Notes under the pieces: generated by a model
Databases searched by the model: none
Seen by the model: only the letters and a program-made list of their open reading frames with translations
What the model was told of the DNA's origin: nothing
Shown here: in pieces, positions 6,085 to 34,155 of the stretch
How positions within the stretch are numbered: the first letter of the stretch is position 1
Layout of the letters: every line of letters starts with the position of its first letter
Translations under genes and position numbers: made by a program
Assembly (NCBI GenBank): GCA_028279595.1
Contig: JANQNK010000020.1
Location: 32,001 to 96,000 of the forward strand
Source: Thermoplasmatota archaeon
GTDB lineage: Archaea > Thermoplasmatota > JAKEGO01
DNA: 64,000 bases
Direction: 5' to 3'

Positions 6085-6186
6085 TTTCGACATCCGACGA
6101 ATTAAACGACAATTCTAATATACCCAATCGACCATATTTCGACACCGGACCAGCCATGGGCATCGGTCCGGCATGAGGTGATGATA

Positions 6187-7128
6187 ATGGCGAACGAAGG
6201 TTACGGCAAGGTTATCCTGTTCAACGAGCATTTCGTCGTCTACGGGATCCCGGCCATCGCATCGGCGGTGGACAGGAGCACGACCGCGACGGTGGAACCC
6301 TGCATGACGTCATGCGGGGGAGAGTTCATTCCGGGTGTGTATCTCGAGGACCAGAGGCCCGAGACCCCGGGTTACAAGGAGAGCAAGATCGACCAGCAGC
6401 GTGATTCCATCAGGTACATGCTCGAGGCCATGGACCTGGACCCGACGCCGAAGCCGATAAAGGTGACGCTCGGCGGGGAGCTCATGTGCGCGAGCGGGAT
6501 AGGAGCCAGTGCGGCATCCTGCACAGCGATGGCCCGTGCGCTTTCCGATTTCTACAGCCTCGATCTCGACGACGACAGGATAAACGAGATCGCATACCAG
6601 GGCGAGAGGGGCTACCACGGCACGCCCTCCGGCATCGACAACACGGCCGCGACCTTCGGCGGGCTCATCTGGTTCCGCAAGGAACCGCCCACGATGGACA
6701 GGATGAAGATGCCCCAGCAGGTCGAGGTGGTCATGGGCAACACCGGAAAGGTGGCGGACACGACCGCAGCCGTGGCCGGCGTCCGCGAGAGGCGTGAGCA
6801 GAACCCGGAGAAGTACGGCGCACTGTTCGACGAGGCGTCCGAGATGGCAGCGACCGCCCGTGAAGCCCTCAACGCCGGCGACCTGGAGAAGGTCGGCAGG
6901 CTCATGGACGAGAACCACAGGCTCCTGCAGGAGATCGAGGTCTCGAGTCCCGAGCTGGACCTCCTGGTGGACGTGGCTCGGGCCAACGGCGCCCTCGGCG
7001 CCAAGATGACCGGAGGCGGGCTCGGCGGAAACATGGTCGCCCTGACCCCGGGGAAAGAGCTCCAGGAGAAGGTCGCGAAGGCGATCGAAGCCGAGGGTTA
7101 CGCCGCACTCAGGACCAGGATCGGATGA
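6187..7128 (+). CDS. mvk: Mevalonate kinase
   Basis: GKVILFNEHFVVYG.PAIA, GHMP loop SGIGASAA, HG.PSGIDN, GAKMTGGG.GG; start could be 6178-6187. Confidence 0.92.
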   Translation: MANEGYGKVILFNEHFVVYGIPAIASAVDRSTTATVEPCMTSCGGEFIPGVYLEDQRPETPGYKESKIDQQRDSIRYMLEAMDLDPTPKPIKVTLGGELMCASGIGASAASCTAMARALSDFYSLDLDDDRINEIAYQGERGYHGTPSGIDNTAATFGGLIWFRKEPPTMDRMKMPQQVEVVMGNTGKVADTTAAVAGVRERREQNPEKYGALFDEASEMAATAREALNAGDLEKVGRLMDENHRLLQEIEVSSPELDLLVDVARANGALGAKMTGGGLGGNMVALTPGKELQEKVAKAIEAEGYAALRTRIG

Positions 7129-7139
7129 GGTGATCGGAT

Positions 7140-8450
7140 ATGAAGCTTAGACCGTTTCTTGAGAGGTTGGAGGAGAAAGGTGAATTGCTACGCGTGACCC
7201 GGGAGGTCGACGCGGAATACGAGATCGCCAACGTACTGAACTCGCTCGGCGAGAGGCCGACGATATTCGAGAACGTGAAGGGTTACGACATGCCGGTCTT
7301 CGGCGGGATCTGCGCCCATCGCGACTCGATTGGCGAGGGAATGAGTACGACCAAGGAGGGTATACTCGGCAAGCTCGTCGACGCCCTGCGGAACCCCGTC
7401 GAACCCGAGATGGTCACCGACGCTCCATGTCAGGAAGTGACCATGGACCCGGTCGACGTCGGGAAACTGCCGATACTCACACATCTTCCCGGCGACGGCG
7501 GACGCTACATGAGCGCCTCCGTCTGCATACTCAAGGACCCCGAGTCCGGAAGGAACGTCTCCTATCACAGGATGATGCAGCACGGTCCGGACAGATTCAC
7601 TGCCAGATTGATCAAGAAGCGTCAGACGAGGACGACCTACGACAAGTCCGAAGAGGATATCGAGTTCGCCATCTGCCTCGGCAGTTCCATTCCAGTACTG
7701 ATAGCCGCCTCTCTCGGACCTCCGTCCGGTGTGGACGAGCTCTCCATTGCCAATGCGATCGCGCCGACCGAACTCGTCAAGTGCAAGACCAAGGACCTCG
7801 AGGTCCCGGCGGACACCGAGATCGTCATGGAGGGCCGTATCACACGCGATGTTGGAGCGGAAGGACCATTCGTCGACCTCACCGAGACCAGGGACTTCGA
7901 GAGGCAGGAGCCCTTCGTAGTCATCGACGCCATAACCCACAGGAAGGACGCCATGTACCAGTGCCTCCTGCCCGGAAGGCTGGAGCACAAGACCCTCATG
8001 GGGATGCCGAAGGAACCCACGATCTACGACGAGGTCTCCAAGGTGGCGGACTGCAAGAACGTCTATGTTAACATGGGCGGCGGTTCCTGGCTCCACTCCA
8101 TAGTCCAGATCAACAAGAAGACCGAGGACGATCCCAAGGCTGCCATCGAGGCCGCATTCAAGGGCCACGGCTCGATGAAGCACGTCTGGGTGGTCGACGA
8201 GGACGTCGACATCTACGACCCGGTCTCCGTCGAATGGGCGATGGCGACCCGCTTCCAGGCGAGCATCGACATGTACGTCTGGGAGAAGCAGCCGGGCAGT
8301 TCCCTGGATCCAAGCGGATTCCACGAACCGGGCAAGAAGACCCAGGTGGACAAGGTCGGGTTCGACTGCACCAAGAGGAGCGACATCGACCCGGCCAAGT
8401 TCGTCAAGGTCGAGTACGGGGAAGTCGACACCGATGATTACGTCAGGTGA
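7140..8450 (+). CDS. UbiD-family prFMN decarboxylase, probable anhydromevalonate phosphate decarboxylase
   Basis: NVSYHRM, VPA.TEIVMEG, EGPF.D, VVDEDVD...VEWAMATR; clustered with mvk, AcnX and ubiX. Confidence 0.9.
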   Translation: MKLRPFLERLEEKGELLRVTREVDAEYEIANVLNSLGERPTIFENVKGYDMPVFGGICAHRDSIGEGMSTTKEGILGKLVDALRNPVEPEMVTDAPCQEVTMDPVDVGKLPILTHLPGDGGRYMSASVCILKDPESGRNVSYHRMMQHGPDRFTARLIKKRQTRTTYDKSEEDIEFAICLGSSIPVLIAASLGPPSGVDELSIANAIAPTELVKCKTKDLEVPADTEIVMEGRITRDVGAEGPFVDLTETRDFERQEPFVVIDAITHRKDAMYQCLLPGRLEHKTLMGMPKEPTIYDEVSKVADCKNVYVNMGGGSWLHSIVQINKKTEDDPKAAIEAAFKGHGSMKHVWVVDEDVDIYDPVSVEWAMATRFQASIDMYVWEKQPGSSLDPSGFHEPGKKTQVDKVGFDCTKRSDIDPAKFVKVEYGEVDTDDYVR

Positions 8451-8751
8451 GGGCCGAACGAGGGTCTGGCTCGAGGTGACCGAGGTCGGAGAGGACATCG
8501 TTATCACCTTAGGTGGTGGAGAGAGGTCTCACATCGGCGGAGTCGTTCTGAAGGTACCAGATGAAGAGGTCAGGACAATGCCCATCGGGACACACCGTGA
8601 CCTCGAGGTACTGATCCCCCTTGCAGAGGCTGCATACGAGAAGTACGGTAAGTCGATCGTCGTGGTCGGAGGGATCCATATCGATGACGCGACGAGGGAA
8701 GAGATCCTGGAGATAGTGGAGAACTGCAAGGACCTGGCATCCCAGCTCTGA
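8434..8751 (+). CDS. LpdD-like (PAC4-like) putative prenylated-flavin chaperone
   Basis: GEDIV..LGGG...HIGGV, HRD, VVGGIHIDDAT.EEI pattern; overlaps the ubiD stop. Confidence 0.7.
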   Translation: MITSGEGRTRVWLEVTEVGEDIVITLGGGERSHIGGVVLKVPDEEVRTMPIGTHRDLEVLIPLAEAAYEKYGKSIVVVGGIHIDDATREEILEIVENCKDLASQL

Positions 8752-8765
8752 TCTGAAGTGAGAAC

Positions 8766-9389
8766 ATGGAGACCATCATCCGGACGTTCGATGAGGGTGA
8801 CCTCGAAGAGGCATCCACCATAATGGCTGAATCGTTCGAGGCGAAGTTCACCAGGCTGGCCGACCTGTCGGTACCCGAGATCGCTGAACTTTCGGTCCAT
8901 CTCGGGATATCCTATCCGAGACCATTCCACGGGTACCTGGTCGCCCAGACGGGGGAGTCCGTTTCCGGCGTCATCGTGCTCAAATGGAAGGGGCAGGACA
9001 GACTGTCGATGCCCATGAGATGGCGAAAGGCCAGGAAGTTAGGGTTATGGAACGCGGTCAAGACACTATTCGGGATGATCCTGCTCGATACGTCCCCCAA
9101 GGCCGGGGAATGCTACATCGAGCATGTTGCCGTCTCGAGCGAGCACAGGGGCATGGGGATCGGGACGATGCTGATCGAGGAGGGTGAACGGATCGCCAGA
9201 CGGTCTGGTCTTCCCCTCTATTCACTGTATGTGGCCGAGTCCAATGAGGGAGCGGTAAGGCTCTATCAATCCTTGGGCTTTTCCATCGATAAAAGGGTCA
9301 AGAGTTGGCTCACGAAACGGATATTCGGAATTCCGGTCTGGTACAGGATGGTCAAGGCCCTCGATCAGGAGATAGACGATCGCCGATGA
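8766..9389 (+). CDS. GNAT N-acetyltransferase
   Basis: YIEHVAVSSEHRGMGIG motif A; N..A..LYQSLGF. Confidence 0.9.
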   Translation: METIIRTFDEGDLEEASTIMAESFEAKFTRLADLSVPEIAELSVHLGISYPRPFHGYLVAQTGESVSGVIVLKWKGQDRLSMPMRWRKARKLGLWNAVKTLFGMILLDTSPKAGECYIEHVAVSSEHRGMGIGTMLIEEGERIARRSGLPLYSLYVAESNEGAVRLYQSLGFSIDKRVKSWLTKRIFGIPVWYRMVKALDQEIDDRR

Positions 9390-9465
9390 CCCAGTCGGCG
9401 ATTCACAAAATATATAACCATCCTGCGCCACTGACGGGATTACCGCTCAAATGGGGGATAGAAGC

Positions 9466-10650
9466 ATGTATCTTACCAATGAACAGGAGGCGATGCTGAA
9501 CGGAGAGGACGGACCGGTGCTGGAGCGCATGTTCCGGCTTCTCGTCCGTCTCGGGGACATCTACGGAGCAGAGAGAATGATCCCTGTCGGTTCCGTGCAG
9601 GTCGCCGGAGTGTCGTTCAAGTCGATCGGACTTCCGGGAACCGATTTCCTCGAGGACATCGCGTCGAAGGGGGAGAAGGTCAAGGTGTTGACCTACCTCA
9701 ATCCAGCGGGCATGGACATCGAGGACTGGAAGGAACTAGGGTTCCCGGAGGAGTTCGCACAGAACCAGATGAGGATCATGGATGCGTTCCGCGAGATGGG
9801 CATCGTGGTCACGTCGACGTGCACGCCCTACCTGGCAGGGAACCTGCCCAGGTTCAGGGAGCATATCGCATGGTCCGAATCCTCGGCAGTGTCGTTCTCG
9901 AACTCTGTGATAGGTGCCCGGACGAACAGGGAGGGCGGTCCGTCCGCCCTCGCTGCAGCGCTTTGCGGGGTGACACCGGATTACGGGCTGCACAGGGACG
10001 AGAACAGGGCTCCGACAGTGGTGATCGACCTCGAGGCCGAACTGAAGTCGAATGCGAACTTCGGCGCCCTCGGATACCACGTCGGCAAGCTGGTCAAGAA
10101 CAAGATCCCCTACTTCAGGGGCATGGAGAACGCGAACACCGACCAGCTCAAGGCCCTAGGCGCGGCGATGGCAGCTTCGGGCGCGGTCGCCCTCTACTAC
10201 GTGGAGGACCTGACCCCCGAGGCGAACCAGCAGGACATCTCTGGATTGGAGACCTTCTCGGTGACGGATTCCGAGATCAAGGAGACCTATGCGACCCTGA
10301 GGACCGGGGAGGAGCCGGACATCGTGTTCCTCGGCTGCCCCCACGCTTCCCTAAGGGAGATCGCCGATGTTGCCGCACAGGTCGAGGGTAAGACCCTTAG
10401 AAAGCCTGTCTGGATAGCGACATCCCGCGTCATGAAGGAGGCTGCTATCAGGATGGGCTTCGACAAGACCATCGAGGCTGCTGGCGGAAGGATCGTCGCC
10501 GATACGTGCATGGTCGTCTCGCCCCTCGAGCAGATGGGCTACGGGACCACCGCTGTCAACTCCGGAAAGGCAGCGAACTACCTTCCTGGATTCTGCAAGC
10601 AGAAGGTCGTGTTCGCGGACATCGCGGACCTCGTCATGGAGGTGGAATGA
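9466..10650 (+). CDS. Aconitase X large subunit (phosphomevalonate dehydratase large subunit)
   Basis: MYLT.EQE.ML.GE.G, TCTPY, AWSESSAV, GARTNRE, LGCPH, DTCMVVSP, NSGKAA.Y; TATA-like ATATATAA at ~9410. Confidence 0.93.
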   Translation: MYLTNEQEAMLNGEDGPVLERMFRLLVRLGDIYGAERMIPVGSVQVAGVSFKSIGLPGTDFLEDIASKGEKVKVLTYLNPAGMDIEDWKELGFPEEFAQNQMRIMDAFREMGIVVTSTCTPYLAGNLPRFREHIAWSESSAVSFSNSVIGARTNREGGPSALAAALCGVTPDYGLHRDENRAPTVVIDLEAELKSNANFGALGYHVGKLVKNKIPYFRGMENANTDQLKALGAAMAASGAVALYYVEDLTPEANQQDISGLETFSVTDSEIKETYATLRTGEEPDIVFLGCPHASLREIADVAAQVEGKTLRKPVWIATSRVMKEAAIRMGFDKTIEAAGGRIVADTCMVVSPLEQMGYGTTAVNSGKAANYLPGFCKQKVVFADIADLVMEVE

Positions 10651-11033
10651 TGGAAGGAAGGAGCATCAGTCCGGGCAAGGCCGAGGGAGAGGCCATCGTC
10701 TCGACCGAGCCGATCGGGTTCTACGGAGGAATCGACGCCCAGACCGGGATAGTCATAGAGCAGGGACATCCCCTCGAGGGCGAGAGCGTCACCGGAAAGG
10801 TCCTGGTATTCCCGAACGGAAAGGGCTCGACGGTCGGGTCCTACGTCATCTACGGACTCGAGAAGAACGGTGTTGGTCCCGTGGCTATCGTCAACCAGGA
10901 GACCGAGACCATCGTCGCCACAGGTGCGATCCTCGCTGGTGTGCCATGCGTGGACGGCATCGACATCTCGACCATCAATACAGGCGACAAGCTTATTGTA
11001 GACGCCGACAACGGGACCGTCGAGGTCGCATGA
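10647..11033 (+). CDS. Aconitase X small/swivel subunit (DUF126; PMDh-S)
   Basis: G.AEGEA.VS..PIGFYGG.D..TG, GKGSTVGSY; ATGA overlap with the large subunit. Confidence 0.93.
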   Translation: MMEGRSISPGKAEGEAIVSTEPIGFYGGIDAQTGIVIEQGHPLEGESVTGKVLVFPNGKGSTVGSYVIYGLEKNGVGPVAIVNQETETIVATGAILAGVPCVDGIDISTINTGDKLIVDADNGTVEVA

Positions 11034-11587
11034 AGGACAGGATAATCGTCGGGATATCGGGCGCTTCCGCCCAGATGCTGGCCGTAGAGACTCTGAAGGC
11101 CTTGAAGGACACAGGCATCGAGATTCACCTCATCGCCACTGACACCGCGAAGGACATCATCGAGAAGGAGACGGAGTACTCCTGGGACTTCGTGGCCGAC
11201 CTGGCCGACGTCGTCCATTCCGACGATGATATGTTCGCATCGGTCGCCTCCGGTTCTTACCGGACCCTTGGAATGATAGTCGTCCCATGCAGCATGGCGA
11301 CCCTTGCTGAGATTGCGAACGGATTGGCGACCACACTTCTGACGAGAGCCGCGGACGTGACCCTGAAGGAGAGAAGGAAGTTAGTCCTCGTGACCAGGGA
11401 GACGCCGTTGAGCTACATCCATATCAAGAACATGTCGACCGTGACGAAGGCCGGCGGAGTGATCCTCCCGCCCATGTTCACCATGTACTCGAAACCGGGT
11501 TCGATAGAGGACATGGCCCGTCACATAGTCGGCAAGGTGCTGGACCAGTTCGACCTAGAACACGATCTCTACAGGCGATGGGAATGA
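11030..11587 (+). CDS. ubiX: UbiX flavin prenyltransferase
   Basis: IVGISGAS, ASGS, VPCSMATLA.IA.G, RAADVTLKERRKLVLV.RETP. Confidence 0.95.
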   Translation: MKDRIIVGISGASAQMLAVETLKALKDTGIEIHLIATDTAKDIIEKETEYSWDFVADLADVVHSDDDMFASVASGSYRTLGMIVVPCSMATLAEIANGLATTLLTRAADVTLKERRKLVLVTRETPLSYIHIKNMSTVTKAGGVILPPMFTMYSKPGSIEDMARHIVGKVLDQFDLEHDLYRRWE

Positions 11588-11898
11588 CCATCGAGATGAA
11601 CAGCAGCAGTCTGGAAGCACGCGTCATCAAATTGATCAGAGAGAAGTACCCGATAACGATGAAGCAGATGGCCAAGGAGCTTCACGTCTCGGACATGAAG
11701 GTCCGACGGGTGATCGGTCGACTCGCCCTTAGAGGGATCGTCGAGAAGGAGGTCCTTCCCGATGCGACCTACGTCCGATTGATCAGACACGATATCAAGT
11801 TCGTCGGACGGAAGGCGGACCAGATCCGTCCCATCAAGCACACCAGCACCAGGAGGGTCGTCGAGGAGCCTGAAGAGAACCAGAACATCTACCAATAG
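11578..11898 (+). CDS. Small winged helix-turn-helix protein
   Basis: LE.RVIKLI....PITMKQMAKEL.VS...VRR.I.RL..RGIVE; overlaps the end of ubiX. Confidence 0.7.
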   Translation: MGMTIEMNSSSLEARVIKLIREKYPITMKQMAKELHVSDMKVRRVIGRLALRGIVEKEVLPDATYVRLIRHDIKFVGRKADQIRPIKHTSTRRVVEEPEENQNIYQ

Positions 11899-12962: not shown

Positions 12963-14402
12963 TCAGAGAAGTACTGTAAGTCCGTACGCCAACGCTGCCG
13001 TCGGAGCCGAGGCCAGAATTACCGCGATGCCGAGATGCTCAAGCTTCTTGATCCTGGACAGCGAGACGCCGTGAGCGATTATCGCCACGGCGACGAAGGC
13101 CTCGACGAGGGCGGCCGTGGGGAGCTCATGCATGTAAAGAGTGACAGAAAGGACCCCCATGGATGCACCGATCGAGAGCAGGGCCGCACCGTAGAGGATC
13201 CTCCTGATCGGCCAGTTCGAGCGGCTCATGATGATGAGGACAATGCCGACACCGGCGATCAGGAAGGCCACCGGGATGACCCTGGGGTCATCAATGTCGC
13301 TGAGAGCGTAGTAGGGAACGAATATGATAGAGTAGATCCCGGCACCGAGGGAGATCCCCCTCAGTCCTGGGATTCCTATCCCCCAACCCTTCCCGCTTAG
13401 GAGAACCGTCATCACACCGAGGACGAGCCATGCCTCGACGTGCCCTTGCTCCTGACCGGATGCGGGTATCATCGAGGCGATGCCCTGCAGTACGAGCATC
13501 GTCCCCGCGACGGACATCATCATCTCCCTGCTCCTCCTCTCCGGTAGGGCTTTGTAGAAGACGAACAGAGAGAACGCCATCAACGGGACCATTGGGGTGT
13601 CCGGATGCGAGAATCCCCTGATCAGATAAGATAGGTGGACCAACACGATCGCTGCTACAGCCATCGGCATCCATGTGATGCCAGCCCGTCTGCCGAGCTC
13701 CATCGTTCCCGATAGGAACATCAGTCCTGGAATGTAGGCCATGAGAAGTACCAGGGTGTTGTCGACGAGAATGAAGGTTGCGAGGAGCAGTGCGATCCCT
13801 GCCGGCAGGGTGACGGAGATCAATCCCTTCAGGATCTCCTCCTTCTGCGCAGCGATGTCACGCCAATCCATCCTATCACCGTAACCGGACGGTGGAGGTA
13901 CATCCCGGTGAGCATCATCCTCTGGAACTGACTCATCGTTCTCACTGGTATTTTCCTCATCATCGGGGAAATCCGGCTCCGGAGGAGGTACAGGTCGTCC
14001 GATGTCCTCACCGAGTTCCGATAGTTTGATGACCTGCAGGGGGCTGAAACCCGAGTTGACAGCGAAGGAGAACGGCACCTCCGCGCCATCGACAAAGACG
14101 GTGCAGGGGTCCAGGCCGTTCCTCAATTTGGTCGATTCCGACAGTCCGTCGGGTGTCAGGATATAGGACTTCTGGCTCCGGGCCTTGCCACGGATGCGCG
14201 AGAGCGTTACCTCCACGTGTCCCTTGTCGACCATCTTCGAGAGAACGATGGCCACGTAACCTCGCTTGATCGACGTCGCCTCGGCGATGCCGGACTGGGT
14301 GACCTCGGGCGGCCTCTCGTAGTCATCGGCGGACCGTATCCAATCCGAGAGGTGGAGGAGTATCTTCTCCTCGGCCGTCAGTCTCGGCAGTGACATCGGC
14401 AT
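12963..14402 (-). CDS. MarR-like wHTH domain fused to a polytopic membrane domain (~9 TM)
   Basis: TQSGIAEATSIKRGYVA..LSKM..KG.V...Y.LT..G; Pro/acidic linker; hydrophobic C-half; start uncertain (14396/14402 after GTATATAA, or 14579). Confidence 0.72.
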   Translation of the reverse strand: MPMSLPRLTAEEKILLHLSDWIRSADDYERPPEVTQSGIAEATSIKRGYVAIVLSKMVDKGHVEVTLSRIRGKARSQKSYILTPDGLSESTKLRNGLDPCTVFVDGAEVPFSFAVNSGFSPLQVIKLSELGEDIGRPVPPPEPDFPDDEENTSENDESVPEDDAHRDVPPPSGYGDRMDWRDIAAQKEEILKGLISVTLPAGIALLLATFILVDNTLVLLMAYIPGLMFLSGTMELGRRAGITWMPMAVAAIVLVHLSYLIRGFSHPDTPMVPLMAFSLFVFYKALPERRSREMMMSVAGTMLVLQGIASMIPASGQEQGHVEAWLVLGVMTVLLSGKGWGIGIPGLRGISLGAGIYSIIFVPYYALSDIDDPRVIPVAFLIAGVGIVLIIMSRSNWPIRRILYGAALLSIGASMGVLSVTLYMHELPTAALVEAFVAVAIIAHGVSLSRIKKLEHLGIAVILASAPTAALAYGLTVLL

Positions 14403-14593
14403 GTGGTAGCCCGTCAGGTCGTTATATACCTTATCGAAATCCCTTCCACGTCCTTCCCCGGAATATCTGGCCCGGGCTGAGAACCCTTCCGGTATCGTAC
14501 CGCTATGTCCGTGCAACTGCCCGTTGCGGTCCATCGTGGTCCCAGCTCTTTCCATGCCGAGAACGGCCGTTCCCGACATCCTTGATCACTTTC

Positions 14594-17500
14594 CTAGGCC
14601 GATGTTATCGTTATCTCTGGTGATTCCGCCCTCAATCCAGGCTGGTACATGTCGTATACGACCATCGAGGCAATGGTCGAGGTCGCCTCGAGGTCGGCCC
14701 TGATGGTGTACGGGATCTCGATCTCGGACCCCGGACCGATGGGCGTGATGTAGACGAGAACGGTTCCGTCGTCGTCTTCCCAGTTGTCTATATCGCCTTC
14801 CTCGATCATCGTGTCGAGGTCCCATGTCATCTGTTCGAACCCTGCGGGCGTTGGCATCTCGATGAGGATCATCTGGAGCGGGTCGGTTCCGTTGTACGTT
14901 ATCGACACGGTGCCGTTGACTATGTCACCCGTGCTCACGTTGACATCGCTCATGATCAGGTCGATATCGATCGGTAGTATGACCGGTTCGTAGGGCATGT
15001 AGTACGATGATATCAGCTGGAATGCGATCTGTCCGATGCTGGCGGATCCGATCGTAACATCGAACTCGTCGTCAACGTATGGCCTGAGATCGATGTACCG
15101 TGTCACTTCGGCGTTCTCCTCGGTAATTGTCTCCTCGTGGACCAGCGTTCCGTCGATCGACACGGAGACCGCCATCTCCTCGACATCTAGTATCGCCTGT
15201 CTCGCAATGGCCTGGAAAGCCACGACCGTGTCCCTGGTCCCGAAGAACCCTGTGGTCGTCCTGTGATTGAGGAGATACCTCGTCCCTGCCGTCGCATAGA
15301 ATGGTCTAAGGTCGTTAAGCGCCATGACGCAGTAACCGGTGGTCTCGACCACTTGAGGGGTCGAGCTCCAGCGCCAGTAGTAGCGGTCGTCGCTTCCCGA
15401 GTCGATCATCGTGTTGTCGGTTGTCCAGTAGGTCTCGTCACCGTCCACGATGGCCAGCTCCTTGAGCCTGTCCGCGATAGGAGTCGTCTGTGAGTGTCCC
15501 CGTTCCTCCAATACTATCAGGGATAGTGCGAGGGAGTAAGGATCGTCCCATATCTCGCTTAGATGAGAACCGATGTAGGCGACGGCGTCATCGAGTGCCG
15601 TTCCATCGTATCCGGAATAGATCAGGGACCTGGCGACATAAGCCGTCGTCGCAACGGTCTTCGTCTTCAGCACGTCCGGTGTGTACTCGTAAAAGCCCCA
15701 CTCGGGGAACGTGAACGAGCCGTCGGAATGCTGCAACTCCAGTATGAGTGCCTGCATGTCGGTGATGACCTTGTGGTCGACAGCGAATCCCGAGTCTATC
15801 GCGTCCTGGAACGTTATGAGGCCCCATGACGTGAGCCATGGGTGTGGCGCCCTGTCGGATGGGAACCATACGATGCCCCTCCCGGGTCCGTCCGGATTTT
15901 CCATGAGGAAGGTGAGCTCGTGGAGGATGCCCTGAACGACGATCTCCTCGTACTCACGCTTCTTGTCGTCGCCGATGCTGTCGTCGAGCAGCCTGTAGGC
16001 GATGACGTCCATTGCGAGAGTGGACATGCTCTGCTCTCCGCAGCCGCTGACATAGTGGATGTACTCCTCAGCACCGTCCATCGCTACAGCGTTCATCGAG
16101 CCCTGGAGCTTTATGTAGGCCATCTCGCTGCCAGGGACACGAAGCGGGTCCATCTCGATCGTGGTCTCGACGGTCATGTCGTCCTCGAGTATCCCGTTCG
16201 TGACGTTGTCGATCCTCAAACCGGTCGGTTCGACCCTGATCTTCCTGATCACGGAGTCCGAAAGGATGCCGTTCGTCGCATCGAGCCTCACTGAGGCCTC
16301 TCCGACCTCGTCCGCCACAAGGCGGAAGGAGATCGAGTCCACTGAGTTCGCGTCGACGACGACCGTTCCATCGGTTGCCCCGACGATGGTCATTCCCTCC
16401 GCAGATATGTCAAGTGCGATCGTTGACTGCTCATCGAGATAGTTGTAGACGAGAGCCTTCAGTTCGAACTCGTCGCCTAGAAGCGCCCTTACGGGAACGT
16501 CTGGCTCTACGAAGAAGTCCTGGAACACCGTGATCTCGATGTCGTCCGTTCCGATCCAGCCCTCCATGGTGGACGCAACGGTCTCCATGCTCCACGTGGT
16601 GATGGTGTCCGGTGCTGTCAGATCGATCGAGGCCATTCCGTTCTCATCTGTCTCTATCATCGGATTCCAGTACCACGTTTCAGGGAAGTACTTCCGTACG
16701 TGGGTCACGGATTTCCCACCGGCCGATGAGTAATCATCGCCGGATCCGGCCTGGGAACCGTTCCCGGCGCCCAATGCGTTCTCGGGAACACCGCCATCTG
16801 CTATGAAATCCCATTCATCCCAACCACCCCGCCATCCACCATCCTCCTTCTCGAGGAGCTCCCCGGAATCCTCATCCGCGCTGCTTGAGGGTGCGGACAT
16901 GTAGGAACCGATGCTGTCCTCAGAAGTCGGCGTGATGGTCTGGGTCATTATCGCTGCAGGCGGAAGTGCGACAAGAGCGACTGCAAGCATTGCATATGCT
17001 GACGCCGTCCTTGCCTTGCTGACGAGATACATGAATGCGATGACCAGGACGAGCCCTATCGAGAGGATGGCGGGGGCCATGCCCTCTGCCTGGAAGTCGA
17101 GCGCTTCGTTCGTATCGTGGATGTAGGCGCCGATCTGGACCTGTTCCTCTCCGCCCGTCGGCACGTAGCCATCGATGCCAGGGGCGGATTCCTCTCCGTC
17201 CATGTACCTGAAGACCTGGTAGACCTCCTCGTCCTCGTAGAGATCGGATGCCGTCATCCTCTGGGCGAGTTCGAACACCGAGGTATCGATGATCCTGATA
17301 CCGAGCGCTGCCTGGACCGGAAGGTCGTGCCTGTCGACGGAGATATCGACCGAGAGGTCGTCGCCGGGTTTCACCGTCGATGACGACGGTGTCGCTGATA
17401 CGGTCAGCGCATCGGGGTCGATGACCGCGACGAGTGCGCTGGAGGTGGCCGAAGAAAGGTCGTCCGCTATCCTGAGCGCCCTTACCTCGATGCCAGGGGC

Positions 17501-19024
17501 CATCTGCGGCGTGGTGGTGAACGAGAATGAACCGCTGCCCTCGGAAAGGTCGAACGTTCCTGAGCGGACACGGGTGCCAGACGTGAAAACGTCGTAATAC
17601 CCCTTCGTAGAGAGGCCACCGCTCGAAACGACGGAGAACGTTGCTATCTCCCCGACATCGTAAGAGTACATGCCGGGAACGATCTTGATCCCGTCCTTGA
17701 CGCCGTCCAGGTCCAGTACGTATTGCGCGGTCGTGTCGCCGTCGGTGACGTTCACCTCGATGTAACCGCGATGTTCGGGAACGGTGAAGGTTATCGGGGT
17801 CATCCCGAGGCTGTCCGTCTCGAGGTCCCATGAACCAACGACCTCGGGTCTTGGATACCACCAGCCTCTTGACTGATCGTCGTTCGGGTCCTCCCAGTCG
17901 TCGGAGTCGTATTCGAAGAGGTTGGCCTCGACAGATGCTTCCGCAGGTCGACCATCCGGATATGTCACTATCAACCAGTAGGTGGACTCAAGGCCGGCGA
18001 TGTTCCAGTCACCGACCACCGCGAGGGTCAGAGGCGACTGGAAGAACGATGTCGCCAACGTCTTCGTCTCGGTATGGTCCGCCGTGTCAGTTACTGTGAT
18101 GTTGAACAGGAACTGGTCGAATCCGGACCAGTTCGTTCCTGGTGTGAAGTCTACGATAAAGGTCCCGGAGAGTGAATCGCTCTCGAGGGTATTCAGCGAT
18201 GTGGAACCGTAATGGTCGTCGTGGCCGATGATCTCGACCTCGATCTCCCCCTCCACAGGCTGTCCGAACGAATAATCGATGGTCAGATCGAAGGTGATGT
18301 TATCTCCCGGAACGTACCATGCCTTGAGCCCGTCAGCGGCGATGATGAACTTGGGAAGGACGTAGCGGTCCACCTTGAGCGAGGCCTCCTCGAACTCGTC
18401 GCCGACCGTTGCCCGAACGGTGTACTCACCGAGGGGCATCAGGTCCGAGAGAGTGAAATCAAGTGCGGAAATCCCGTATGCGTTGACATCCAGCGTACCC
18501 TTGAAGACCTTGTCGCCCTCGGGTGAGAATATGTCGATCTCCACCGCATCGGTCGATGGCGTCCGTGTCGACCTTTCGAACGTCAGGAACCGCATGTGCA
18601 CGGTCTGGCCCGGTTGATAGATCGGCTTGTCGGTCTGGATGATAATTGAGACCGACCTCGACTCGACGACGCTCAGGGTCCCCGTGAATGAGCGTCCGTC
18701 AACGTTCACGACTATCGTGGCGTTCCCGATGGGCGGGATGAAATCGACGTTGGCGATCCCATCACCGTCGGTCTTGCCAGCGTACTTCTCGATCCCCGTT
18801 TCGGTGATTATCTCCACCAGGACCAGCTCTCCCTCGAGCGGTTCTCCGTCCAGGTCCTGAGCGATCACGGTCACCTTGTCCGACTCGTCGCTGCTGAGTT
18901 CCGACGGCATCATTACCGTCACGTCCGATTCGGAGGACCTGTAGACGTCGTCCAGACTGTCCACGAAAACGGCCGTTCCGACCAGGGCAAGGCAGAATAC
19001 GATGATTATCGTCCATCTCTTCAT
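14594..19024 (-). CDS. Alpha-2-macroglobulin / thioester-containing protein
   Basis: N-terminal signal or anchor; MG2 IQTDKPIYQPGQTV; VRKYFPETWYWNP; APDTITTW; thioester GCGEQ (16031-16045); GFFGTRDTVVAFQAIA; receptor-binding-type M.LIE...PAGF C-domain. Confidence 0.92.
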   Translation of the reverse strand: MKRWTIIIVFCLALVGTAVFVDSLDDVYRSSESDVTVMMPSELSSDESDKVTVIAQDLDGEPLEGELVLVEIITETGIEKYAGKTDGDGIANVDFIPPIGNATIVVNVDGRSFTGTLSVVESRSVSIIIQTDKPIYQPGQTVHMRFLTFERSTRTPSTDAVEIDIFSPEGDKVFKGTLDVNAYGISALDFTLSDLMPLGEYTVRATVGDEFEEASLKVDRYVLPKFIIAADGLKAWYVPGDNITFDLTIDYSFGQPVEGEIEVEIIGHDDHYGSTSLNTLESDSLSGTFIVDFTPGTNWSGFDQFLFNITVTDTADHTETKTLATSFFQSPLTLAVVGDWNIAGLESTYWLIVTYPDGRPAEASVEANLFEYDSDDWEDPNDDQSRGWWYPRPEVVGSWDLETDSLGMTPITFTVPEHRGYIEVNVTDGDTTAQYVLDLDGVKDGIKIVPGMYSYDVGEIATFSVVSSGGLSTKGYYDVFTSGTRVRSGTFDLSEGSGSFSFTTTPQMAPGIEVRALRIADDLSSATSSALVAVIDPDALTVSATPSSSTVKPGDDLSVDISVDRHDLPVQAALGIRIIDTSVFELAQRMTASDLYEDEEVYQVFRYMDGEESAPGIDGYVPTGGEEQVQIGAYIHDTNEALDFQAEGMAPAILSIGLVLVIAFMYLVSKARTASAYAMLAVALVALPPAAIMTQTITPTSEDSIGSYMSAPSSSADEDSGELLEKEDGGWRGGWDEWDFIADGGVPENALGAGNGSQAGSGDDYSSAGGKSVTHVRKYFPETWYWNPMIETDENGMASIDLTAPDTITTWSMETVASTMEGWIGTDDIEITVFQDFFVEPDVPVRALLGDEFELKALVYNYLDEQSTIALDISAEGMTIVGATDGTVVVDANSVDSISFRLVADEVGEASVRLDATNGILSDSVIRKIRVEPTGLRIDNVTNGILEDDMTVETTIEMDPLRVPGSEMAYIKLQGSMNAVAMDGAEEYIHYVSGCGEQSMSTLAMDVIAYRLLDDSIGDDKKREYEEIVVQGILHELTFLMENPDGPGRGIVWFPSDRAPHPWLTSWGLITFQDAIDSGFAVDHKVITDMQALILELQHSDGSFTFPEWGFYEYTPDVLKTKTVATTAYVARSLIYSGYDGTALDDAVAYIGSHLSEIWDDPYSLALSLIVLEERGHSQTTPIADRLKELAIVDGDETYWTTDNTMIDSGSDDRYYWRWSSTPQVVETTGYCVMALNDLRPFYATAGTRYLLNHRTTTGFFGTRDTVVAFQAIARQAILDVEEMAVSVSIDGTLVHEETITEENAEVTRYIDLRPYVDDEFDVTIGSASIGQIAFQLISSYYMPYEPVILPIDIDLIMSDVNVSTGDIVNGTVSITYNGTDPLQMILIEMPTPAGFEQMTWDLDTMIEEGDIDNWEDDDGTVLVYITPIGPGSEIEIPYTIRADLEATSTIASMVVYDMYQPGLRAESPEITITSA

Positions 19025-19260
19025 TTCGTTCACCCACCGCTTCTCTGTATAATCACGGACGACGAGGGTACAAATACCCCTTTCTGCTGCATGCAGCATG
19101 CAGGACCTGCCATCGGCGGTAATATTCTCCATCTCGACCGGTCATCCCAATTGCGTTTTTCGGTCGAATTCACACAAAAATCAACGATATATGGCGTATT
19201 TTCTCCAGTCAGTAATGCTTTTATACGCACAATGGCTTTTTCAACGGAGTGGTGGCGGTC

Positions 19261-19956
19261 ATGTTCAGGGACTGTATCAAGGGGTTGGACCGGGTGTTTC
19301 AGAGTGAAATCAAACCTGGCAAGACCATCCTTGTCACGGGCCCTCCTGGTTCTCTGAAATCGAGTTTCGTTCACGCCGTGATGAAGTCATATGTGGAGAA
19401 ATCCGGTGAGTTCGGACTCTTCACGACCCTCGAGCAGGACACCAGCTCCCATCTGGAGGGCATCGAATCCATCGGTCTGGGCCTTTCCAGGAACCTCCAG
19501 ATAACCGATTACAGCGAGATCCTCATGGACGAGTACGGGGGGAACTTCAACTACATGGAGTTCACCGAGATGATGATCGACCACTTCAAGGACCGCTACG
19601 GCGACAGGTTCTCGATATACGGTTTCGACTCCCTGGGTGCGCTCTATTCCATGATGCCAGATGTGAAGAATCCGCGCAAGTTCGCTTTCCAGTTCTTCTC
19701 GATGGTCAGGAAGCACAATCTGACGACCTTCATCATCCTGGAGAGCTCCCTCCAGGGCGATCCACTGACCATGGGGAACGAACCGTTCCTGGTGGACGGG
19801 ATATTCCATCTGGGTATCAAGAGGAACCGAGGTCACCTGACACGCTACTTCCAGGTCATCAAGATGCGCGCGACCAAACACAGCATGGACCCGTTCGCCA
19901 TCAAGGTGGACGACGGCGGCATCGAGATACTCGGACCCCTTCTCGACACCTCTTGA
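19261..19956 (+). CDS. KaiC/RAD55-like single-domain RecA-fold ATPase
   Basis: I.GLD, Walker A GPPGSLKS, TLEQ, FDSL, VDGI..L, R.FQVIKMRAT.H; start 19249 or 19261. Confidence 0.88.
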   Translation: MFRDCIKGLDRVFQSEIKPGKTILVTGPPGSLKSSFVHAVMKSYVEKSGEFGLFTTLEQDTSSHLEGIESIGLGLSRNLQITDYSEILMDEYGGNFNYMEFTEMMIDHFKDRYGDRFSIYGFDSLGALYSMMPDVKNPRKFAFQFFSMVRKHNLTTFIILESSLQGDPLTMGNEPFLVDGIFHLGIKRNRGHLTRYFQVIKMRATKHSMDPFAIKVDDGGIEILGPLLDTS

Positions 19957-23258: not shown

Positions 23259-26200
23259 TTATGCCGGTCCCTTCCTACGTGGTTTCCTTGCCTTTTTACC
23301 TGTACGAAGGACATCCTTGTATTCGTCAGTTATATGGCAGCCCCATTTCCGCTCTGAAGATACAACACCCTTCGCCTTCAGGTCCTTGACGTGATAGGCG
23401 ACCGTCGACTGCGTGATATCAAGACGTGAAGCCAGCTCTCTCTGCTTGATACCGGGCTGTTTAATGATCTGCATCACAACCCTCTTCTCTACGTCGCTCA
23501 GAACGACGTCTGGGACCCTGTAGCCGTAAGGATAGAACCTCCGATACATTCCATCCGGACGTGATTTGATGAAACCACCGGATTCGAGCACCCGCAGGTG
23601 GTATCCGGTGGTCCCGTTCTTCAGGTCGAGTTCCTTCTTGATCCTGTTGAAGTGGGAACCCGGATTCTCGTTGAGGTAGAGTACGATGCGACCCCTGGTC
23701 TCATGGTCGGTGATGGCTTCCTTCTTCAGTTTGGAATATAGTGGGAACAGGAGAGGGATAGCGAAGTAGCGTCCTCTGTCGATGGCCCACAGGCCTGCGA
23801 ATCCTGCTCCGAGGAGGCCGATGGAGGCTCCGACGAAGATCCATGTAACGAAGACCGGATCTGTGGAATCTCCAATATCATCGAGAGATATCGTCCCTCG
23901 CGCTGTTCCGGAGTTCAGTTTTTCGTTATCATCGGAATAGCTTGTCGCCGTGATGTTGAAGCTTACCGAACCGCTAGCATTCAATGGTACCAGCGCCGAG
24001 ATCCTAGCCTCTTTCTCGGAACCCGGTAGGATGTAAAGACTTTGATTGGTGATCGTGACCCATTCGCTATCGACCGTCAAACGGATCATCTGGGGAACGT
24101 TACCCTGATTTTCCACCGTAAGGTCATACTTGACCTTATCACCGGGATCGGCGCCGGACGTCAATCGGTTCAATCCCAGTGAGAAAGAATAATCGGCCCC
24201 ACTAGCTGTGACAGTTGTCTGTTCTGAACCGACCATCTGATCTTCGTGTAGAACGACGACCTCGAATGTATAATCTCCAGATTCGTTCAGTGAGACGCTG
24301 AATGTGAGATTCGTATAGCTCGTACCTGGGGAAAGGATCAAAACCTGAGACGAATTCTTAACTACGGCGTCTTCCCGCTTTGTATTCAATCTTACTGTAA
24401 GATTGGATTCATGAGGGATCCCCGAATGGTAACCAAGGGTGATCGTCACATTAAGGGATTCACCTGTGACCACGTACCCATCATAGGAGATGTCTGCTGT
24501 AACCTCGAGTGACCGATTGAGCCATTTCTCTGGTGGGCTGTACGGATCCATAAGGGGATAGGAGTCGATCGTGCCAGTACCGTTATGGATGTAGTACGGA
24601 ACATCACCGATTCCATCTTTATCATTGTCCTTTCCAGTATAGTCGCTCCAGTAGTTACCCTCAGATCCATCGTCCCACGTGGTGGCAATACCTACATTCG
24701 TAACCTGGTGACGATCCTCATTGTGAATATAGAAGTTATTATGATGAATTGTCGAGTTTATACAGGTCTTTGTAATGTAGAGCGCAAGTTCATCACCAAG
24801 TGTGAACTCATTGGCCCACACCATGGTATCGAGAGACGAATAATCGATGACGATACTGCTGTAGGTATCGGAGTTCCCACGGAACCTGTTGCTTGAGATG
24901 TTCGTGTCCTCCGAGTACAACAGGCGGACCCCCGTTTCGGAAGAACGAATCTCATTATCGACTATTCGGTTACCCTTGGATCTGTGAAGATATATCCCCC
25001 ACTCACAGGTCTCGATGGAATTGTTCATCAACAGGTTGTCGTCTGAATATATCAGTGAAATGCCAGAATAGGATTGGTTTGAGACCGTGTTCTCACGGAC
25101 GATGTTGTTCCGGCAGAATCCCATCTGTATGCCAATTCCCGAATGATTGACAAGATTCCCTTCGACGATCACATACTCACAGGCTGCCATTATTATATGG
25201 CGGGAGGTTCCGTTCACAACTCCTCCACTAGCATTCTTTACGTAGATTATCGGGCTGCCATCGATCTGGTTTGACTGATCGATACTGTGTGTGTTCCAGT
25301 TCGCTTTGTAATGTCCGTAGATGTTGATCCCACAGTTCGAAAAGGTATTATTCGATACTACGGTCCGATTCGAATGCCAGATGCCCAAACCATATTCTGC
25401 ATCGACGACACGATTGTGGATGATGCGATTATCATCGGACCACGCGATGTGGATTGACCGTCTTGAATCACTGAAACTACACGACTCGATCAGGTTCCCT
25501 TTCGCCCCGTCCTCAAGGGCGATCCCTCTCTCGATGTCGGATAAGTGGATATTCAGGAGCGAGCACTGATCAGAGTCCACCAATATTCCGTTCCGGGGTC
25601 TATACTTGGTGCCTTCCTCGATGCCAAGACCTTCGATCATTACGTTATTACTCTTTACCCAGACCACTGACATCTCCTCGTCCGAGCCCGCTTCCAGCGT
25701 GGTGTTGGATGAACCATTTCCTATGATATCCAACCTCTTTTCGATGATGATTGATTCCTCGTATTCACCAGCGTAGATGTTAATGATGTCAAAGTCTGTC
25801 GCATGTTCGAGTGCATCCTGGATCAACGAGAAATCAGCCCACGAACCATTGTCATCATCCACGATCCAGGTCTGTGGAATCATATCATTTGAGCCGGACC
25901 CATTCGGATTCATAAGAGGAAAAAGGTCCGCGATGAGCAAACTGCCGTTGATCACATAGGGTATATCGCCGATCCCATCGTTGTTCACGTCGGTCCCATT
26001 GTAATCCGACCAGTAATTGCCACGTTTTCCATGATGCCATGTAACGTTGTTACCGTCATCCTGAGCGTTCTCCGTGTTATCTATCAGAGCATTTTGATAG
26101 ATAATGCCATAGGTGTTGGACTCGTTCTGGTCTTTTACTCTTCCCCAGAGCTCGATACCTATCTTCGAATTGTTCTGGATCGTGTTGTTATTTATAATGA

Positions 26201-28832: not shown

Positions 28833-31800
28833 TCACAGCTTGTCCTTCTGGTCCTTCAGGATGGTCCTGTATTCATCGGTAAGCTGACAGCCGGTCTTCC
28901 GCGAATATGTGACGATACCCTTCTCCTTCAGGTCCTTGACGTGATAGGTGATAGTGGATGCCGATATCTTGAGTTTGGTCGACAGCCTCTTCTGGCTGAT
29001 CCCTGGGTTCTTGATTATCTCCATCACTATTTTCTTCTCCATGTTCCCCAGGTGGACGTTCGGGATTGAGTAGCCGTGGGGGTAGAATCGGCGGTACATC
29101 CCGTCGGAGACCGACTTGATGAATCCGCCCTTCTCAAGGACCCTGAGGTGATACCCCGCGGTACCGTTCTTCAGGTCCAATTGTTTCTTGATCTTGTTGA
29201 AGTGAGCTCCTGGGTCATTATCGAGATACACTACGATCCTGCCTCGGATGTCGTGGTCTTGGATATTGTCTCTCTTGAGTTTAGAATAGAGCGGTGAAAG
29301 GAACGGTATTGCTAGATATCGACCACGATCGGTCGACCAGACGCCAACCAACCCGATGGCTCCAAGAGCCGTGACACCAAGGAATATCCATAACAACCCT
29401 ATCGGGTCGGCAGTGGGGTCTGAGACCGTTATTTCCACCGATGCTGAACCCGAGTTGTAGACCTCATCGTCCAAAGATATGCTCTCTGTCAGGATTGTGA
29501 AGTTGACCACACCTTCGGCTCCTGAAGGGATCGTTGCTGTCACCGTCGTTGTCCCCTCGGAATGAGGTAGAATGTAGATCGTTATGTTGTCGATTACTAT
29601 CCAATCCTCCTCGCACGATAATCTGAACCTTTGAGGGACATTCCCTTGATTCTCGATAGTAAGAGTATATTCGACTTCATCTTCTGGCTTCGCTTTTGAT
29701 GACGAGCGGTCCATCGTCACCTTGAACGAATGGTCCCTCACTTCGCTCAGGATGGCTGCCTCGGCTGTTTCGACCTCGACATCATCGTGAATGACCTTAC
29801 CCTTGAAGGTGTAGTTACCTGATTCGTTCAGGTAGAGTGATTGTTCCAATGTCTGATTCCACTGACCTACCGGAATAGTGATATTACCCTGGATGGTAGA
29901 ATAGTGCTCTCCATCGAGCTGGATTTCGATCTCGACCGTTGCATATGTTTCTTCAGGATCCGCTGAGGCTGACTCGAGGACGATGACCACGGTTATGGTC
30001 TCCCCCTTTATCGTTTCACCTATTGTCCAGATCTCGGAGGAAACATCAACTGATGTCCCTGGCTCCATCAACGGGTAGGGGTCTTTCGCACTGTCGTTCC
30101 CATCGAGGAAATAGGGGGTGTCACCGATACCGTCCCCATCGTCGTCCGACCCTGTATAATCAGACCAGTAGTTGCCTCTTTTCGCCATGTACCAATAATT
30201 GTACGTGGTGTCATCGAACCCCTGGGAGTAAGGTCCATTATTGGAATTGAACGAATTAAGACTCAGGGTATTGTTGCGGCTGTAGACCGGATCATGGAAG
30301 ATGTTCAGGTAACTCCTCACCACGATTCCATGCTCTCCATTTCCATCAATGCTATTATTGAGGATGAGGTTCCCATCACTTCGATAGACCTCGATCCCTG
30401 CAATGGTATTATTGAATATGTGATTCGATCCGATTACATTGTCATCGCTGTCTTCCAAATAGATACCCGTACCCAGCGTCTGATTTGGGAAATACCTCTC
30501 GTCATAATATGGTCCGGTACCCTGAACTTCACACCCAAGGATTCGAGACTCATTTCCCATTGAAATGTAGATAGCATATTGGTGATTATCGTTAAATGAA
30601 CATCTTTCAATTGCCGTGTATTCTCCACCAAATTGCGATACGCCTCTCACAAACCCAGTCACTGAGGACCTTGCCAGTGAGAAATTACTGGACTTGTACA
30701 ACTTAATCCCCGTCAATCCGGTTCCTTTTACGTCAACGTTCGAGACCGTGATGTTATTTGAGAATCCGATCTGAACGCTCGATAGGTTCATGATTTCATT
30801 CTCATTGAATATTGTGAAGTCTGTAACATTGGCAAGGATGAAACAGGATTGGAGTCCGGAGCCCATACCGCCCGTCCGATTTCTGATGTAACTCACTTCC
30901 CTACCATCCATGGTGTTCGAGTCGAATGTATGTGTCGTCCAGTCTTCAAGAACCTCACCAGTCATGATAATGGAGGCATTATCGAATTGATTCCTTTCAA
31001 TAGAAATCTCACGAGACCTATAGATGGTCAGTCCCTCCTTCAAATCGGTGAACCTGCAGCTAATAACCTTGACTCCCGACGATTCCTGGATATATATACC
31101 ATCATCGTCCCCGGAGGAGAAGGTGCAGTTGGAGATGATCCAATCATCACAGCGAGGTAGATAGATGCTCCATCCAGAGATGTCCTCAAAGACGGAATTC
31201 ACGATTCTACTGCCATCCCGACTTCCCCATATCCCGCGTGAATCCATAAAAATGCAATTCCGGACCAAGTTGTTGTTACCACTTAGATCAATTCCCCTGG
31301 TTCCGTTGTCAAATACAATATTTTCTATAAGACAGTCATCTGCATGAACGTGAATCCCATCTCGGTTACTGTTTTCAACTATTCGGAGGCCGATTAGACG
31401 CGTGTCATCTTCTAAGATACTGACGTAATTATGTCCGCAGATAATTCTTGACCGATGCGATTCGTTGCCAATGATCGTGACACTTTTTCGAGCGTCAAAA
31501 TCAACGTGATCACCATCGAAAGCTACTACGTAATCACCGTTATTTGCATTATCAATGGCAGCCCTGATCGCCTTATAGTCGTTCCACCAGCCGTCATCGT
31601 CGTCAACGACCCATACCTTGATTCCCTCAGCTTCGACGCCGTCCCACTCCTCGTCAATAGGATGATCGTCTGTGGCGCCCGTCTTTCCCAAGAGGATGTA
31701 TGGTTCTTCACTCTCATGATCCGACCAGAAGTTACCCGCGTCACCATTATCCCAAATGTTGAAATAACCATCGTCAAACGCCTGGCTCGAGTTTCCATTG

Positions 31801-34013: not shown

Positions 34014-34155
34014 GCTATCCCTCATCGGGATTTCTATCTTTCCGTGCTTATATGTGCAGATTGGTTCAGTCATCGAAACTCATAGGACTTTCGGTCGAAT
34101 TATCGGAAATGTTCACGTATATTACTAAATACCCCCAGTGTTTACGTTCGTTCAG

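Follow-up and report, generated by a model that had tools for sequence, protein, structure and literature searches.

A predicted transmembrane hairpin, conserved within the MG6 insert of an archaeal thioester protein of the alpha-macroglobulin superfamily, and its co-inheritance with a membrane-bound winged-helix protein

The window analyzed here (64,000 nucleotides, positions 32,001 to 96,000 of contig JANQNK010000020.1 in assembly GCA_028279595.1, from a Thermoplasmatota archaeon) contains on its minus strand, at 14594-19024, a gene that encodes a 1,476-residue thioester protein (P0001) of the A2M/CD109/C3 fold, as judged from Pfam, sequence matches in the PDB and Foldseek; we refer to it as the trap. 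Sequence analysis and structure models confirmed a predicted transmembrane hairpin, conserved throughout the family, within the MG6 insert of this intact thioester protein. The reading that we moderately favor is that of a membrane-integral trap, the bait of which would be cut by a protease from outside, which would conjugate that protease and remain on the cell, and the gene of which would be controlled by a co-inherited partner, probably according to the state of the trap. All features of the trap are given below in window positions and lie on the minus strand.

The earlier note on this DNA, made from the letters alone, had reported two hydrophobic stretches joined by a short basic loop, and these were recovered in frame within the insert (16943-17080), by hydropathy as well as by family conservation. 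The hairpin comprises: a first helix (TM1, residues 648-667, 17021-17080), predicted from hydropathy and the family alignment to run from outside to inside; a loop of seven residues (668-674, 17000-17020), taken as basic and cytoplasmic from the Lys/Arg content in the family; and a second helix (TM2, residues 675-693, 16943-16999), predicted from hydropathy and an AlphaFold helix at 673-685 to lead back out. The Kyte-Doolittle 19-mer peaks were 2.49 for TM1, 1.87 for TM2 and 2.53 for the N-terminal helix of the protein, the remainder of the trap staying at or below 1.21. On an approximate insertion scale of the Hessa type (biological hydrophobicity), TM1 and TM2 of the window protein scored -1.6 and +0.5 kcal/mol, respectively, and the family medians were -1.8 and -1.7 kcal/mol. 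Both AlphaFold models gave a helix at 637-669 that is followed, after a turn, by another starting at 673, and disorder over 686-770.

Conservation of the hairpin in homologues had been set beforehand as a test. Exactly two helices were predicted in the insert of 173 out of 175 family sequences (insertion-energy scale; the set overlaps between databases), and hydrophobic segments at this position were kept in all 120 homologues of a second set. Since the pair is shared by these sequences and by an 83%-identical protein from another sample, it reflects neither chance nor an assembly artefact. The loop contained at least one Lys or Arg in 172 of 173 members (mean 3.2 Lys/Arg against 0.16 Asp/Glu); its length between the predicted helices has a median of about 4 residues, and its conservation is limited to this basic character. 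The segment following TM2 was net acidic. The hairpin residues substitute freely with hydrophobicity retained on all faces, and charges occupy 2-4.5% of positions. These properties, together with the basic loop and the modelled helix-turn-helix followed by disorder, argue for membrane helices rather than a buried soluble pair. The number of crossings should be even, because both halves of MG6 must share one side of the membrane, and more distant prokaryotic relatives indeed had an even number of helices (2, 4, 6 or 8) in 32 cases and an odd number in 6 (binomial p=2e-5, kin not being independent).

The position of the hairpin was assigned by comparison with human A2ML1, in which LNK and bait form a single MG6 insert; the bait of A2ML1 ends in a plug (Arg730-Pro734), which occupies a channel that has the MG2-MG3 linker (Tyr214-Pro217) as its lining, and bait cleavage makes this plug retract (PMC9156758). 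Both hydrophobic segments of the trap lie between the Pfam matches A2M_BRD (445-585) and A2M (782-870), and the order along the chain is as follows: the first half of MG6 (residues 540-579, 17285-17404; AlphaFold strands with pLDDT >90); LNK (580-624, 17150-17284), with conserved columns and with helices in both models, followed by a flexible loop; a stalk (625-647, 17081-17149), from residue 637 onwards a single helix that continues into TM1, with Ala640 in 74 of 82 sequences; TM1, loop and TM2; a bait-like region rich in Gly, Asp, Ser, Ala, Glu and Pro (694-775, 16697-16942), variable in sequence and in length (55-105 residues in 90% of members) and disordered (pLDDT <50 over 686-770); the putative trigger plug Arg776-Pro780 (16682-16696), of which Arg776, Phe779 and Pro780 are invariant and which corresponds to A2ML1 Arg730-Pro734 (PMC9156758); and the second half of MG6 (782-817, 16571-16678), seen in Pfam and AlphaFold. 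The linker that would line the plug channel (Tyr220-Pro223, 18353-18364) was recovered as well, with Tyr220 and Pro223 invariant in 82 sequences, as the equivalent of A2ML1 Tyr214-Pro217 (PMC9156758). A disordered, variable bait immediately before a conserved plug, as in inhibitors of the A2M type, is thus present, and according to sequence and models the hairpin precedes this bait and does not replace it.

Several elements of the earlier note have to be revised on this basis. It had described the hairpin as flanked by two acidic Gly/Ser linkers, but the N-terminal flank (580-647) consists of the conserved LNK and a predicted stalk helix, and only the C-terminal flank (694-775) is disordered and poorly conserved. 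Its proposal that the trap is pinned to the membrane through its trigger holds insofar as the hairpin tethers the trap inside the MG6 insert, but the tether lies upstream of the bait and is not the bait itself. Because the hairpin is situated between LNK and bait, a single bait cut should free the plug and leave the hairpin on the N-terminal chain, so that there is no basis for the release of a membrane fragment that the note had put forward.

The remainder of the protein has the layout of the superfamily (Pfam, AlphaFold, Foldseek): a ring of MG domains with a split MG6, a TED inserted in CUB, and a C-terminal MG8. Pfam domains MG2, MG3, A2M_BRD, A2M, TED (974-1273) and A2M_recep were recovered, and the closest solved structures by sequence were Xenopus A2M, CD109, A2ML1 and C3, with bacterial A2M absent from the best 60 PDB matches; Foldseek on the trap model agreed, placing C4b, CD109 and C3b on top. 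Nearly all named relatives were metagenome-assembled genomes (MAGs) of Thermoplasmata, and the 120 homologues shared 33-50% identity with the trap, apart from one close relative. The Cys-x-Glu-Gln motif was intact in all of them, in the window protein as Cys994-Gly-Glu-Gln997 within TED (16031-16042). The position of the catalytic His is occupied by Tyr1111, with Tyr in about 85% of the hairpin family, from which we infer amine-directed conjugation. The protein contains three Cys in total and none within the MG6 insert. The N-terminal hydrophobic helix (18953-19009), preceded by basic residues (mean 4.4 Lys/Arg across the family), is a putative signal anchor or signal peptide, and a lipobox was found in none of 148 hairpin-family members. 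The longest open reading frame (ORF) starts at 19132, upstream of the promoter elements of the trap gene; the likely start was placed at 19024 because the palindrome and TATA-like element described below are located upstream of that position.

Taken with the anatomy, these features suggest the following sequence of events. The chain would be inserted with its N-terminus inside, with MG1 to the first half of MG6 and LNK outside; TM1 would lead inward, the basic loop would be cytoplasmic and TM2 would lead outward, leaving bait, second half of MG6, MG7, CUB, TED and MG8 outside, so that the two halves of MG6 share one side and are able to fold together. Computational support for this step is strong, and we regard the predicted topology as very likely. 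A protease outside would then cleave the bait, the disordered segment that separates TM2 from Arg776; the plug would retract, and the thioester, once exposed, would link the protease, probably through amines; such a bait-triggered thioester trap is probable, given the conserved motifs and the analogy with A2ML1. Judging from the anatomy, the hairpin on the N-terminal chain would finally keep the spent trap and its catch on the cell, unlike the shed CD109.

The next gene on the strand of the trap (12963-14402, minus) encodes a protein composed of a winged helix, a linker and 9-11 predicted membrane helices, which we call the partner. Its start is likely 14402 or 14396, not 14579, and a TATA-like element lies ahead of it near 14421-14430. 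Helix-turn-helix matches (Pfam MarR_2/Crp-like) were found in 27 of 33 partner members and 9-11 helices in 30 of 33; a Zn ribbon in the linker occurs in 21 of 33 relatives and is absent from the window copy. Such a predicted cytoplasmic DNA-binding domain fused to membrane helices is the mark of membrane-bound one-component transcription regulators. No Pfam family and no solved structure matched the domain of about ten helices, and the ESM Atlas gave no usable match for the partner. Of 102 loci that extend beyond the trap gene on its downstream side, 75 have the partner directly after it (the locus sets overlap), as have none of 40 outgroup loci. The search of 401 genomes of the phylum was based on the membrane domain (a search with the whole partner was uninformative, the winged helix having many paralogues): the hairpin type of trap was present in 21 genomes and the partner membrane domain in 13, all 13 of them among those 21 and spread over 8 families, whereas none of 8 genomes that hold solely the other thioester type (see below) contained it. 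The partner is kept, though unlinked to the trap, in four genomes (G005, G016, G093 and G189) and probably in a fifth (G402). In the window genome three paralogous partner-type winged helices were fused to other proteins of 870-950 residues (C4:80846-87265, C11:136392-139046). The trap gene itself appeared split in L055 and L184 (G406): on a MAG chromosome that is complete, some 0.87 Mb separate its two pieces, the 3' piece still adjoining the partner gene, as a result of rearrangement or misassembly.

When the upstream regions were searched without a preset motif, a palindrome with core RCATGY emerged. It occurred in 32 of 38 partner-linked promoters (1.2 expected), in none of 25 outgroup promoters and in none of 38 mid-locus controls; it is often doubled, and in the aligned promoters it mostly ends 8-11 nucleotides before the TATA element. 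The operator-like site of the window (19087-19103) consists of a perfect 10-mer (19087-19096) and an overlapping partial copy that extends to 19103, and a degenerate TATA-like box (19069-19076, minus) lies 10 nucleotides downstream. The palindrome was found upstream of none of five unlinked partner genes, and a wider regulon was not apparent in the window genome (control spacings gave 6-9 matches of palindrome plus TATA, the actual spacing 5). The palindrome variant of the window recurs in this genome outside the window, at C18:139754 (plus strand), 9 nucleotides before a TATA-like element, with no ORF above 80 residues directly downstream; this occurrence is not above chance. The variant with C at position +3, to which the window site belongs, arose three times on the tree, each time with Gly after the invariant Arg of the partner recognition helix, while in one further Gly lineage the site is unchanged; an Arg before the invariant Arg goes with the commonest site variant in 28 of 30 cases. 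On the strength of co-inheritance and site conservation, the winged-helix/10-helix partner would bind the palindrome that precedes the TATA box, thereby controlling the trap gene, which we consider quite likely. By analogy with Ptr2 and TFB-RF1, the position immediately ahead of the TFB element would fit activation, but repression may apply as well.

A parallel was found among bacterial relatives. Bait helices were predicted in 13 of 13 of those that carry a cytoplasmic N-terminal extension of at least 70 residues, against 19 of 53 without it, the kin in this comparison not being independent. Several of these extensions show, as read by eye, the His-x3-Cys-x2-Cys pattern of zinc anti-sigma factors; Pfam returned nothing for the extension at E 0.01 and one weak zf-HC2 match. 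A gene for an extracytoplasmic function (ECF) sigma factor was located directly upstream in all four extension-bearing relatives that were checked, but not in the hairpin-less relative or the two multi-helix relatives without extension that were checked likewise. As far as sequence goes, bait-helix members are thus associated with two transcription outputs that have no relation to each other, and this is our main reason to take signalling seriously.

The last step of the proposed sequence would be that the partner senses the state of the trap in the membrane, via the hairpin or the N-terminal helix, and that expression is adjusted to replace spent trap. That the signal passes through the membrane helices of the trap is a tentative suggestion, to which we give slightly less than even weight. 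The coupling of protease attack to signalling that the earlier note had envisaged survives in part: the co-inheritance of partner and palindrome and the bacterial anti-sigma fusions speak for it, but the loop carries no signalling domain, and a route through the hairpin is only tentatively suggested. More generally, and more tentatively still, bait-helix thioester proteins could be a hitherto undescribed class of prokaryotic protease receptors, in which membrane helices would carry the conformational switch of the macroglobulin to transcription; with the same reservation, the output in Thermoplasmata could be a winged-helix membrane protein, and bacteria could separately use an anti-sigma domain, fused to the receptor, together with its ECF sigma factor.

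Several observations weigh against the membrane-integral, partner-controlled trap. TM2 of the window protein contains two prolines and is marginal on the insertion scale. Column identity in the hairpin averages 29%, with one column above 90%, which is below expectation for a specific interface. In 8 of the 21 trap genomes (incomplete MAGs) the partner membrane domain was not matched; these copies keep the hairpin, so that anchoring alone can maintain it and the trap may work without the partner. Winged helices of the partner type have many paralogues (in 194 of 401 genomes), one of which could bind the palindrome instead, and the covariation of site and recognition helix rests on 3-4 events, for which a sign test is not significant. 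Some monomeric family members play complement-like roles rather than trapping proteases (PMC9156758), and trapping by the present protein is argued from analogy. A complex prediction for the hairpin (residues 622-701) with the partner membrane domain scored 0.00, the fold of the partner being uncertain, and is not evidence either way.

The strongest alternative, which we consider the less likely one though still a serious one, is that the hairpin is an anchor only: a second tether replacing a lipid anchor, with the partner regulating the gene yet sensing something else through its own 10-helix domain. The distribution of anchors lends itself to this explanation. In the tree, which has no outgroup, the sequences of the hairpin family fall into a single clade (support 1.0), next to a group from Methanosarcinales and bacteria that lacks the hairpin. 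A lipobox was present in 22 of 38 members of the hairpin-less sister group, against the 0 of 148 in the hairpin family, and a second thioester type of Thermoplasmatota (1,700-2,560 residues; L094:3694-10851, L097:2444-10009, L099:3721-8865) has a membrane helix at its C-terminus and none in the bait. Because hairpin-less relatives thus carry other anchors, anchoring is a sufficient reason for the hairpin. The anchor types are distributed complementarily, the hairpin helices are weakly conserved, and the hairpin is retained in the Hydrothermarchaeota and UBA202 trap copies, where neither the palindrome nor, in the same genomes, a partner match was found; moreover, no regulator gene adjoined the six-helix and four-helix relatives that were checked. 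On the other side, the trap already possesses an N-terminal helix, one face of TM1 (Trp, Leu, Gly, Gly and Leu) is conserved in part, the partner membrane domain was found solely with the hairpin type, and the bacterial anti-sigma fusions solely in bait-helix members. As to the groups concerned, the sister sequences L060-L086 (Methanolobus, Methanococcoides, Methanoperedens, Micrarchaeota and some bacteria) include cultured methanogens and many lipoproteins, and they retain the C3-like catalytic His. The genome G189 carries the second thioester type at about 6 kb from the hairpin type. The hairpin-type gene of a Hydrothermarchaeota MAG (L033, with close relative L021) is nested among Thermoplasmata sequences, which makes horizontal transfer possible.

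It is improbable, in our estimation, that a released or exposed membrane fragment is itself the signal, arising for example when TM2 is cleaved within the membrane following a bait cut. TM2 would by then be left as an N-in helix that ends in a short stub outside, which is the geometry of site-2-protease substrates, and Pro occurs in TM2 of 42 of 146 members as compared to 8-9 for TM1 and the N-terminal helix. However, 104 of the 146 TM2 helices lack Pro, one cut would not detach the hairpin from LNK, there is no room for a payload in so short and variable a loop, and no protease gene was recognized among the conserved neighbours, most clusters of which are unannotated. Less probable again is that TM2 is an internal signal peptide, at which signal peptidase or prepilin peptidase would generate two chains as furin does with C3. 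Basic residues do precede TM2, and the last insert helix of three bacterial relatives is pilin-like, but among 173 members neither Ala-x-Ala after TM2 (15, against 11.9 in shuffled sequences) nor a class III motif ahead of TM2 (30, with 33.1 in the shuffled set) was enriched, and cleavage immediately behind TM2 would leave the bait with a loose end and should, judging from A2ML1, fire the trigger early (PMC9156758). In the three relatives (P0189, P0227 and P0247) the helix and the residues following it resemble the N-terminal helix of type IV pilins, without confirmation from Pfam; P0189, labelled pseudopilin at JGI, belongs to a Verrucomicrobiota cluster, and prepilin peptidase might split these proteins into two chains. 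That the helices form a buried, anaphylatoxin-like soluble pair is scarcely credible: although C3 carries its helical anaphylatoxin domain at this place (PMC9156758), the pair has no cysteines, next to no charges, free substitution with hydrophobicity on all faces and a positive-inside bias, and the helix number changes by twos, up to eight.

Among the known systems, human CD109 (PDB 8s3o, 9fx2, 9fx3) resembles the membrane-integral trap in being a monomeric, surface-tethered thioester protein with the eight-MG layout of eukaryotes, and it was the second-best PDB match by sequence and by fold. Bait cleavage in CD109 exposes the thioester, and the protein, which has its glycosylphosphatidylinositol (GPI) anchor on a furin-separated MG8, is shed on activation (PMC12927315). 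The trap, in contrast, has its anchor within the MG6 insert on the N-terminal chain and should therefore stay, has Tyr at the His position, and shows neither a C-terminal hydrophobic segment (GPI signal) nor a basic cluster before MG8. A2ML1 and A2M (PDB 7q1y, 6tav) have LNK and bait in one MG6 insert, and their plug, channel and thioester motifs are kept in the trap, but they are soluble, with no membrane helices between LNK and bait and no linked regulator. C3 and C4, which are among the top Foldseek matches, have the anaphylatoxin at the position of the trap insert; the trap lacks the anaphylatoxin cysteines, the C345C domain, the tetra-Arg processing site and the catalytic His. The prokaryotic proteins ECAM/YfhM of E. 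coli and Salmonella A2M are membrane-tethered covalent protease traps (PMC4498604), but they differ from the trap in their ten MG domains, N-terminal anchor, thioester motif and linkage to Pbp1C. Structures of the ECAM type ranked 37 and lower by fold, and of the characteristics of ECAM type I the trap showed none: no lipobox, an MG2 match that starts at residue 126, and winged-helix and KaiC-like neighbours instead of pbpC. On the side of the regulator, ToxR/CadC, archaeal ArnR and ECF sigma/anti-sigma systems have a DNA-binding or anti-sigma domain in the cytoplasm under control from the membrane, in many cases with a second membrane protein as partner and proteolysis as input; in the published literature searched we found no member of these systems with a thioester macroglobulin as sensor.

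The KaiC-like ATPase gene that is divergent from the trap gene (19249-19956, plus strand) was considered as a further member of the module and rejected: only the close relative L188 keeps it, and no homologue was found in 52 other loci examined. The window further contains two tandem giant ORFs on the minus strand, 23259-28718 (1,819 residues; modules that recur, a hydrophobic helix late in the chain and a C-terminal part that is basic) and 28833-34073 (1,746 residues), and a co-oriented cluster on the plus strand (6178-11898) with UbiD-, aconitase X- and UbiX-like ORFs.

The published literature yielded no description of membrane helices in an MG6 insert, of members from Thermoplasmata or of any connection with a regulator, although an older mention is possible, and a 2026 review lists alpha-macroglobulins only for animals and Gram-negative bacteria, with no mention of archaea or transmembrane forms (PMC12939704). 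The alpha-macroglobulins in the literature surveyed are soluble or anchored at one end. A polytopic, animal-like archaeal member with the full trigger machinery indicates that an MG6 insert is able to span the membrane, and it would provide a way to retain the spent trap on the cell. If the link with the regulator holds true, the switch of A2M and complement would serve in prokaryotes as a receptor for proteolytic attack, with a defined candidate operator, and this would bear on the roles of the ancestors of complement and CD109.

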